Shown: piece by piece, positions 6,371 to 6,790 of the stretch
Numbering within the stretch: the stretch's first letter is position 1
How the letters are laid out: each line of letters starts with the position of its first letter
Source: Escherichia coli
Lineage (GTDB): Bacteria > Pseudomonadota > Gammaproteobacteria > Enterobacterales > Enterobacteriaceae
Assembly: GCF_003334355.1 (NCBI RefSeq)
Contig: NZ_QOWP01000040.1
Reading direction: 5' to 3' (one strand)
DNA length: 30,137 nt
Made by a program: the position numbers and the translations under genes
Notes under the pieces: model-generated
Database searches by the model: none
The model's input: the letters and a program-made list of their open reading frames with translations, nothing else
What the model was told of the DNA's origin: nothing

Positions 6371-6790
6371 ATGAAACGGAACACGAAAATTGCCCTGGTA
6401 ATGATGGCGCTTTCAGCAATGGCGATGGGATCGACATCTGCATTTGCTCACGGCGGACACGGTATGTGGCAGCAAAATGCCGCGCCTTTGACCAGCGAAC
6501 AACAGACAGCGTGGCAGAAAATCCATAATGACTTTTACGCTCAAAGCAGCGCACTGCAACAGCAACTGGTGACGAAGCGTTATGAATACAATGCCCTGTT
6601 AGCCGCGAACCCACCGGATAGCAGCAAAATTAACGCGGTCGCCAAAGAGATGGAGAATTTGCGTCAGTCGTTAGATGAGTTACGGGTGAAACGAGATATC
6701 GCGATGGCTGAAGCGGGTATTCCGCGCGGTACCGGAATGGGTTACGGCGGCTGCGGTGGTGGCGGTCATATGGGTATGGGCCACTGGTAA
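6371..6790 (+). CDS. zraP: Periplasmic zinc-stress chaperone/repressor ZraP (signal peptide, Gly/His/Met-rich C-terminus)
   Basis: In-frame ATG at 6371 preceded by GGAGG; product starts MKRNTKIALVMMALSAMAMGSTSAFA (signal peptide). The ORF-track start at 6230 lies inside the enhancer and is not credible. Confidence 0.9.
   Translation: MKRNTKIALVMMALSAMAMGSTSAFAHGGHGMWQQNAAPLTSEQQTAWQKIHNDFYAQSSALQQQLVTKRYEYNALLAANPPDSSKINAVAKEMENLRQSLDELRVKRDIAMAEAGIPRGTGMGYGGCGGGGHMGMGHW

Follow-up and report, generated by a model that had tools for sequence, protein, structure and literature searches.

The predicted disordered, glycine-rich C-terminal tail of Escherichia coli ZraP: a likely carrier of metal ligands that varies in Met-Gly copy number between strains

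In E. coli, the zinc-responsive periplasmic protein ZraP ends in a glycine-rich tail, predicted to be disordered, that we consider likely to be a flexible tether bearing conserved soft or borderline metal ligands. Four ligand-type residues of this tail (C128, H133, M123 and M136) are invariant in 24 ZraP sequences from several genera. Furthermore, the tail varies in length within the species: the ZraP proteins of the DNA analysed here, of K-12 and of strain VCSW8 have 139, 141 and 143 aa and differ by the presence of one, two or three ATGGGN hexamers, each encoding Met-Gly, ahead of Tyr125. The tail described below is that of the 139-aa allele, which is common in nature, and is encoded by positions 6713..6787 of a 30,137-nt stretch of DNA that was analysed as a whole and is called hereafter the window. 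This tail is already known and belongs to ordinary biology, with nothing new in kind, and the Met-Gly polymorphism is a minor point of population genetics. Literature on the Gly/His-rich metal-binding ends of ZraP (YjaI) reportedly dates back to 1998.

The zraP gene and its C-terminal tail

The window is a segment of the E. coli chromosome with the gene order purHD-zraRS-zraP-yjaH-hupA...thiCEFSGH-rpoBC-rplKAJL-nusG-secE-tufB. Strain PSS-12 is collinear with it and differs at 8 of the 30,137 positions. The zraP gene (Table 1) starts at an in-frame ATG (6371), with GGAGG located 5' of it, and stops at 6788-6790. Its product is identical to RefSeq WP_001296714.1. It matches the NCBIfam ZraP equivalog NF008584 from residue 1 to 139 (profile positions 1-145) with 279.5 bits for a cut-off of 200, the Pfam Metal_resist domain PF13801 from residue 8 to 121 (E = 1.7e-23) and Salmonella ZraP 3LAY (E = 2.3e-52). 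These matches agree with the first-pass annotation of the window, made from its letters, which had named the product as ZraP, a zinc-responsive periplasmic protein. ZraP is called periplasmic in the literature (PMC9175090, PMC4987338), and its N-terminus resembles a Sec signal peptide with AFA as its last residues.

The gene was found in 5,421 of 5,426 complete E. coli genomes, where RefSeq annotates it as zraP. The five others carry no zraP match, and two zraP matches are located on plasmids. In strain KFu021 (retrieved locus 1-908), an IS1A insertion truncates the 5' end of zraP and leaves the codons from about 40 onward.

Table 1. Features of the zraP locus (positions in the 30,137-nt window)
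Feature	Position	Strand	Basis or remark
zraR	3435..4760	-	RefSeq annotation of the collinear PSS-12 region
zraS	4757..6133	-	ORF list and RefSeq annotation of the collinear PSS-12 region
20-nt inverted repeat, zraS-zraP intergenic region	6229..6280		Arms 6229-6248 and 6261-6280, 95% complementary
Sigma-54 type promoter of zraP, TGGCACGGAAGATGCA	6320..6335	+	Motif match
zraP coding sequence	6371..6790	+	139 codons and TAA; ORF list and translation; same coordinates annotated by RefSeq in PSS-12
Presumed signal peptide, MKRNTKIALVMMALSAMAMGSTSAFA	6371..6448	+	Cleavage after AFA; basic N-terminus, hydrophobic core and A-x-A motif read from the sequence
HGGHGMW, mature N-terminal His/Gly motif	6449..6469	+	Candidate second metal-binding segment
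LTXXQ motif of the CpxP/Spy/ZraP group (L40-T-S-E-Q44)	6488..6502	+	Read from the translation
Folded core, helical hairpin (helices 42-78 and 84-114)	6494..6712	+	AlphaFold2 pLDDT 91-98; superposes on 3LAY
Gly/Met/His/Cys-rich C-terminal tail A115-W139, AGIPRGTGMGYGGCGGGGHMGMGHW	6713..6787	+	In frame, exactly 25 codons
ATGGGT unit (Met123-Gly124), site of copy-number polymorphism	6737..6742	+	Single copy here; DNA and protein alignments
Cys128 codon	6752..6754	+	Sole Cys of ZraP; invariant in 24 orthologues
Terminal motif H133-M-G-M-G-H138-W139	6767..6787	+	Holds a second repeat, ATGGGY x2

The mature protein would begin with HGGHGMW, which may be one of the two zinc-binding domains reported for ZraP. 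Its counterparts in the 24-sequence alignment of orthologues are rich in His and Trp (for instance RHHWGNGxGMWQQ). The LTXXQ motif that follows gives a weak match with Pfam LTXXQ (residues 40-102, E = 0.017), and all the aligned orthologues have its residues E43 and Q44.

The last 25 residues had been described as Gly-rich, with His, Met and Cys, and as a segment of low complexity. They contain 12 Gly, 3 Met, 2 His and 1 Cys, and the 25-residue segment of lowest entropy in the whole protein begins at residue 113, so both descriptions hold. The extent given for the tail in the first-pass annotation was right, since it covers exactly 25 in-frame codons, but the amino acid string that was quoted with it began one codon too early, at E114. 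Glycine accounts for 12 of the 25 tail residues (48%) versus 4 of the 114 residues found elsewhere in ZraP (3.5%; Fisher p = 9.5e-8), and the binomial probability of such a count is 5.6e-8 at a background of 7.4%. By contrast with glycine, no significant enrichment of Met, His or Cys, taken one by one, is seen in the tail of this single sequence (p = 0.18-0.31). Therefore, the importance of these residues rests on their conservation in orthologues and not on their counts. Only the first seven residues of the tail (to position 121) are included in the Pfam match, most of the tail being located outside the domain.

The tail had also been proposed to be flexible, and the structural predictions point in the same direction. 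The AlphaFold2 model was built on the 24-sequence orthologue alignment, as a monomer without metal. In this model, residues 122-139 have a pLDDT below 50 and no secondary structure, as expected for an intrinsically disordered region, and a pLDDT below 50 is also obtained for residues 16-36, which run from the last part of the signal peptide through HGGHGMW, at the start of the mature protein. The helical hairpin of the model superposes on the chains of 3LAY with an rmsd of 0.7-1.2 A and a TM-score of 0.93-0.97 relative to the target. The 3LAY entry, which is titled decamer, has 77-81 residues modelled per chain versus 175 deposited, and the modelled part matches the hairpin. This suggests that the termini, including the tail, are disordered in the decamer crystal. 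Since the AlphaFold2 model is a monomer without metal, its low pLDDT values are compatible with an ordering of the tail in the oligomer.

Conservation and length variation of the tail

The 24 full-length ZraP sequences that were aligned come from E. coli, Citrobacter, Salmonella, Kosakonia, [Enterobacter] lignolyticus and metagenomic relatives. Besides the four ligand-type residues named above, G127 and G132 are invariant in all of them, and conservation reaches 90% or more at eight other tail positions (G120, G122, G124, G129, G131, G135, G137 and W139). Such an alignment of orthologues had been proposed as a check of tail length, and it reveals that the tail varies from 22 to 33 aa across these Enterobacteriaceae. 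The changes are found at three spots: (i) the Met-Gly units ahead of Y125, (ii) an insert of 0-9 residues between the Cys and GGH and (iii) the Met-Gly units past H133, which number one to three depending on the genus. For instance, the orthologue from Salmonella Typhimurium (STM4172, 3LAY) has the same hairpin core and shares with the window the tail frame GMGYGGCGG...GGHMGMG.W. Its tail is 8 aa longer, owing to a YGGGYHRG insert that adds one His between the Cys and GGHMGMG, and ends with NW versus HW in the window.

More distant relatives were searched for among 1.84 billion representatives, and 116 relatives of at least 120 aa were scored on their last 30 residues. At least 30% Gly was found in 72 of these 116 C-termini, a Cys in 76 and a His in 79. 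Since the C-termini of distant relatives are often rich in Gly, Met, His and Cys, the composition of the tail is conserved well beyond its sequence, as is usual for a disordered segment maintained for its chemical properties. Many distant PF13801 relatives end with a Gly-rich stretch followed by Cys-Trp-x (for instance ...GPGxCWN or CWR). The Cys of enterobacterial ZraP is placed otherwise, about 10 residues ahead of the terminal His-Trp.

Within E. coli, the Met-Gly site is present in one copy in the window, two in K-12 and three in strains VCSW8, O91 RM7190 and AF22. The ZraP protein of K-12 (YjaI; WP_000828222.1) is the product of the same gene, which lies between zraS and yjaH in that strain too. 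Its residues 1-120 and its last 17 residues are identical to those of the window protein, which is 2 aa shorter since it has one Met-Gly unit versus two, and which carries Thr121 versus Ala. In the alignment of the window, K-12 and VCSW8 proteins, this Thr/Ala121 change is linked to the copy-number alleles. Allele frequencies were estimated from BLAST identity bands obtained with three allele-specific queries, among which rare other lengths could hide: two copies (K-12 type) in about 3,459 of the 5,421 genomes (64%), one copy in frame (window type) in about 1,822 (34%), three copies in 78-85 (1.5%) and a frameshift caused by an additional AC on the one-copy allele in about 55 (1%). Hence, the earlier claim that tail length differs between strains is borne out, and the opposite case of a tail identical in all strains does not apply to these 5,421 genomes. 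However, the variation is small (one to three copies), and in the window the site is collapsed to a single copy that is no longer a repeat. In agreement with this, TRF detected no tandem repeat at the DNA level in the window allele (6300-6900). A survey of pig isolates reported 11 ZraP variants, the lowest identity being 98.0% (PMC6892955). An explicit description of the Met-Gly copy-number polymorphism was not found in the literature searched.

The in-frame length differences result from the gain or loss of the 6-nt ATGGGN unit, with replication slippage as a likely cause. When 15 strains are placed on a neighbour-joining tree of their flanking sequence (3.1 kb), the one-copy allele is found on at least four backgrounds and the three-copy allele on two. 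Recurrent slippage or recombination explains these interspersed copy-number states equally well. The changes in Met-Gly copy number fall in a part of the tail that serves as a spacer and do not affect the ligand residues.

The frameshift is more drastic. It results from an AC duplication at codon 121/122 (equivalent to 6731/6732 in the window), and it puts 39 unrelated residues in place of the last 18, so that all conserved ligand-type residues from M123 on are lost. Strains ET670 and 13C1065T are among its carriers, and RefSeq marks the gene as frameshifted. The hosts of the carriers are chickens, turkeys, ducks, humans, a pangolin, a migratory bird and a frog. Furthermore, the product of this allele forms a 237-member protein cluster in a metagenome and read-assembly collection. 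Because RefSeq marks the frameshift and because the same product is found in this cluster, the allele is genuine and does not stem from an error of sequencing. About 55 genomes thus encode a ZraP without the ligand-bearing tail, indicating that at least one lineage is viable in its absence. These natural strains can be viewed as ready-made tail-less mutants for the study of the role of the tail in vivo.

Metal binding and rival explanations

The ability of E. coli ZraP to bind Ag+ in vivo is lost when its Cys is changed to Ser, and the purified mutant protein does not bind Ag+ either (PMC6557469). Since ZraP has a single Cys, the residue changed in this mutant is the Cys of the tail. Two zinc-binding domains are attributed to ZraP in two reviews that relay earlier work (PMC9175090 citing Noll 1998; PMC3852070 citing Appia-Ayme 2012). 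Similarly, a passage of another paper states that E. coli ZraP represses zraPSR only when it is zinc-bound (PMC10848872 citing Petit-Hartlein 2015). Together with the invariance of C128, H133, M123 and M136, the loss of Ag+ binding by the mutant and the zinc domains mentioned in the reviews support the first suggestion of a metal-binding tail. Petit-Hartlein et al. are also said to have described interfacial metal sites and a role of the conserved Cys in the integrity of the oligomer.

ZraP is the accessory chaperone of ZraSR, the zinc-responsive envelope-stress system, and modulates it by feedback. In the tail, the glycines would form a flexible tether presenting Cys128, His133, His138, Met123, Met134 and Met136. 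The tail may wrap around Zn2+ (and also Cu or Ag ions), probably acting with the His-rich N-terminal HGGHGMW of the same or of a neighbouring subunit. Metal binding would then stabilise the ring-shaped oligomer of helical hairpins and convert ZraP to a zinc-loaded form that damps ZraS signalling. In this scheme, we infer which residues ligate zinc and that the N- and C-terminal ends cooperate.

Other functions can be considered for the tail. It could be mainly an oligomerisation element in which Cys128 forms an inter-subunit disulfide or staples the ring, metal binding by the tail being incidental. ZraP is a large homo-oligomer, as the title of 3LAY indicates, its Cys128 is invariant in the 24 orthologues and, since the periplasm is oxidising, this single Cys could form an inter-subunit disulfide instead of binding metal. 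However, the 3LAY decamer is made of about 80 ordered core residues with no modelled tail, and a disulfide role leaves unexplained the conservation of His and Met beside the Cys. Moreover, it is specifically Ag+ binding that the Cys-to-Ser mutant loses (PMC6557469), and we therefore regard this explanation as unlikely. A slightly less probable one is that the tail is a metal-independent, disordered client-binding arm, whose Gly/Met-rich segment would grip unfolded envelope proteins. Met-rich flexible segments do bind hydrophobic clients in other systems, and the tail is predicted to be disordered, but Spy, a related chaperone, is not known to need a tail of this kind. ZraP indeed has a chaperone activity (PMC4987338, PMC9175090), but this activity is zinc-dependent or zinc-enhanced (PMC10848872, PMC4987338), and the invariance of a Cys and a His is what one expects of a metal site and not of client binding.

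The least probable explanation, to which we give very little credit, is that the tail is a functionally neutral low-complexity appendage drifting in length, or a hypermutable contingency repeat. Neutrality would account for the variation in length within E. coli and between genera, for copy numbers scattered across flanking haplotypes and for the persistence of a tail-destroying frameshift in about 1% of the genomes, from diverse hosts. It is hardly consistent with six invariant tail positions and eight others conserved at 90% or more across genera, nor with the recurrence of similar tails in distant relatives. A phase-variation or contingency locus was rejected since the 6-nt unit keeps the frame, only three in-frame states are found in 5,421 genomes and TRF detects no array. 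The flexible, ligand-bearing tether thus remains the explanation that we favour. It is conceivable, though improbable in our view, that Met-Gly copy number and the tail-destroying frameshift are functional alleles setting zinc, copper and silver affinities and ZraSR feedback set-points according to the lineage. Their effects might combine with those of the periplasmic sensor domain of ZraS, which is strongly dimorphic.

Comparison with known systems helps to delimit what is particular to the tail. CpxP and Spy have in common with ZraP the helical hairpin fold family and a periplasmic accessory role to an envelope-stress two-component system (PMC9175090, PMC10848872). The similarity of ZraP with NCBIfam CpxP is marginal and restricted to the N-terminus (E = 3e-4), and the structural match of the model with CpxP 3ITF is weak (E = 0.87, prob 0.63). 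CpxP and Spy are not known to have a Gly/Cys/His/Met C-terminal tail. CnrX from Cupriavidus (PF13801 relatives), a periplasmic metal-sensing protein, has a similar helical fold (Foldseek probability 0.93-1.0), with a TM-score of about 0.5 when referred to the query and of about 0.6 when referred to the target, and a sequence identity of 16-18%. From the titles of the entries and what is known of this protein, its Ni/Co site would be located in the folded helices and not in a disordered tail. In CusF, PcoE/SilE and the Met-rich loops of CopA/PcoA, short Met/His motifs on flexible segments capture soft periplasmic metal ions. The resemblance of these motifs with the ZraP tail is an analogy and not a homology, since they have Met/His-X spacers without the poly-Gly and single-Cys arrangement.

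K-12, the strain in which the biochemistry of ZraP was done, carries the two-copy tail, and about a third of E. coli, including the window, carries the one-copy tail. Beyond annotation, the significance of these data is small: ZraP is a well-studied stress protein whose tail is already known as the end that carries metal ligands, and the practical value is modest.

The zraSR-zraP region and neighbouring genes

Upstream of zraP, in divergent orientation, lie zraS and zraR, whose two-component system controls zraP and is in turn modulated by ZraP. Expression of zraP, which encodes a zinc-binding periplasmic chaperone, is reported to depend on sigma-54 and ZraR (PMC4987338). The promoter listed in Table 1 is the sole match to TGGCAC-N5-WTGCW in the window, for 0.09 expected by chance. 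The 20-nt inverted repeat is presumed to be the ZraR enhancer site, given its place between the divergent zraSR and zraP. A 42-aa ORF (6240-6368, + strand) spans the enhancer and sigma-54 promoter region. At the same place, the RefSeq record of T309.Ta3 (1370-1504 of the retrieved locus) includes a 44-aa 'hypothetical protein', an annotation that is probably spurious.

The periplasmic sensor domain of ZraS (residues ~41-195, encoded by ~5400-6100 on the - strand of the window) is strikingly dimorphic in E. coli. The corresponding stretches of the window and K-12 zraS genes display about 174 nt differences, and, as read by eye from the alignment, about half of the residues are the same in the two proteins between positions 41 and 195, with a 7-aa indel. 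The rest of ZraS (membrane and cytoplasmic parts) is nearly identical in the two. By megablast, the K-12-type segment is found in 1,236 of the 5,426 genomes, 967 of them at 99% identity or more and 269 at about 90.5%, and the remaining genomes presumably carry the window-type sensor. Since the same ZraP protein occurs with both types of ZraS sensor, there is no strict co-variation with the tail.

On the other side, zraP (+, TAA 6788-6790) and yjaH (-, TGA 6792-6794) are convergent, with one nucleotide between their stop codons. No terminator-like hairpin was found between these stop codons or just past them, so that zraP transcripts would have to end within the sequence antisense to yjaH. The Gly codons of the tail were also considered as the trace of an antisense gene. 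This candidate was rejected: the sole antisense ORF (6680..6895, 71 aa, TTG start) overlaps yjaH and is unannotated in all 18 distinct RefSeq records inspected. Elsewhere in the window, Rfam matches were obtained for 'Pseudomonas sRNA P26' in the rplL-rpoB spacer (26143-26204, - strand, 71 bits) and for a TPP riboswitch upstream of thiC (11774-11874, + strand), both at the place expected for E. coli.
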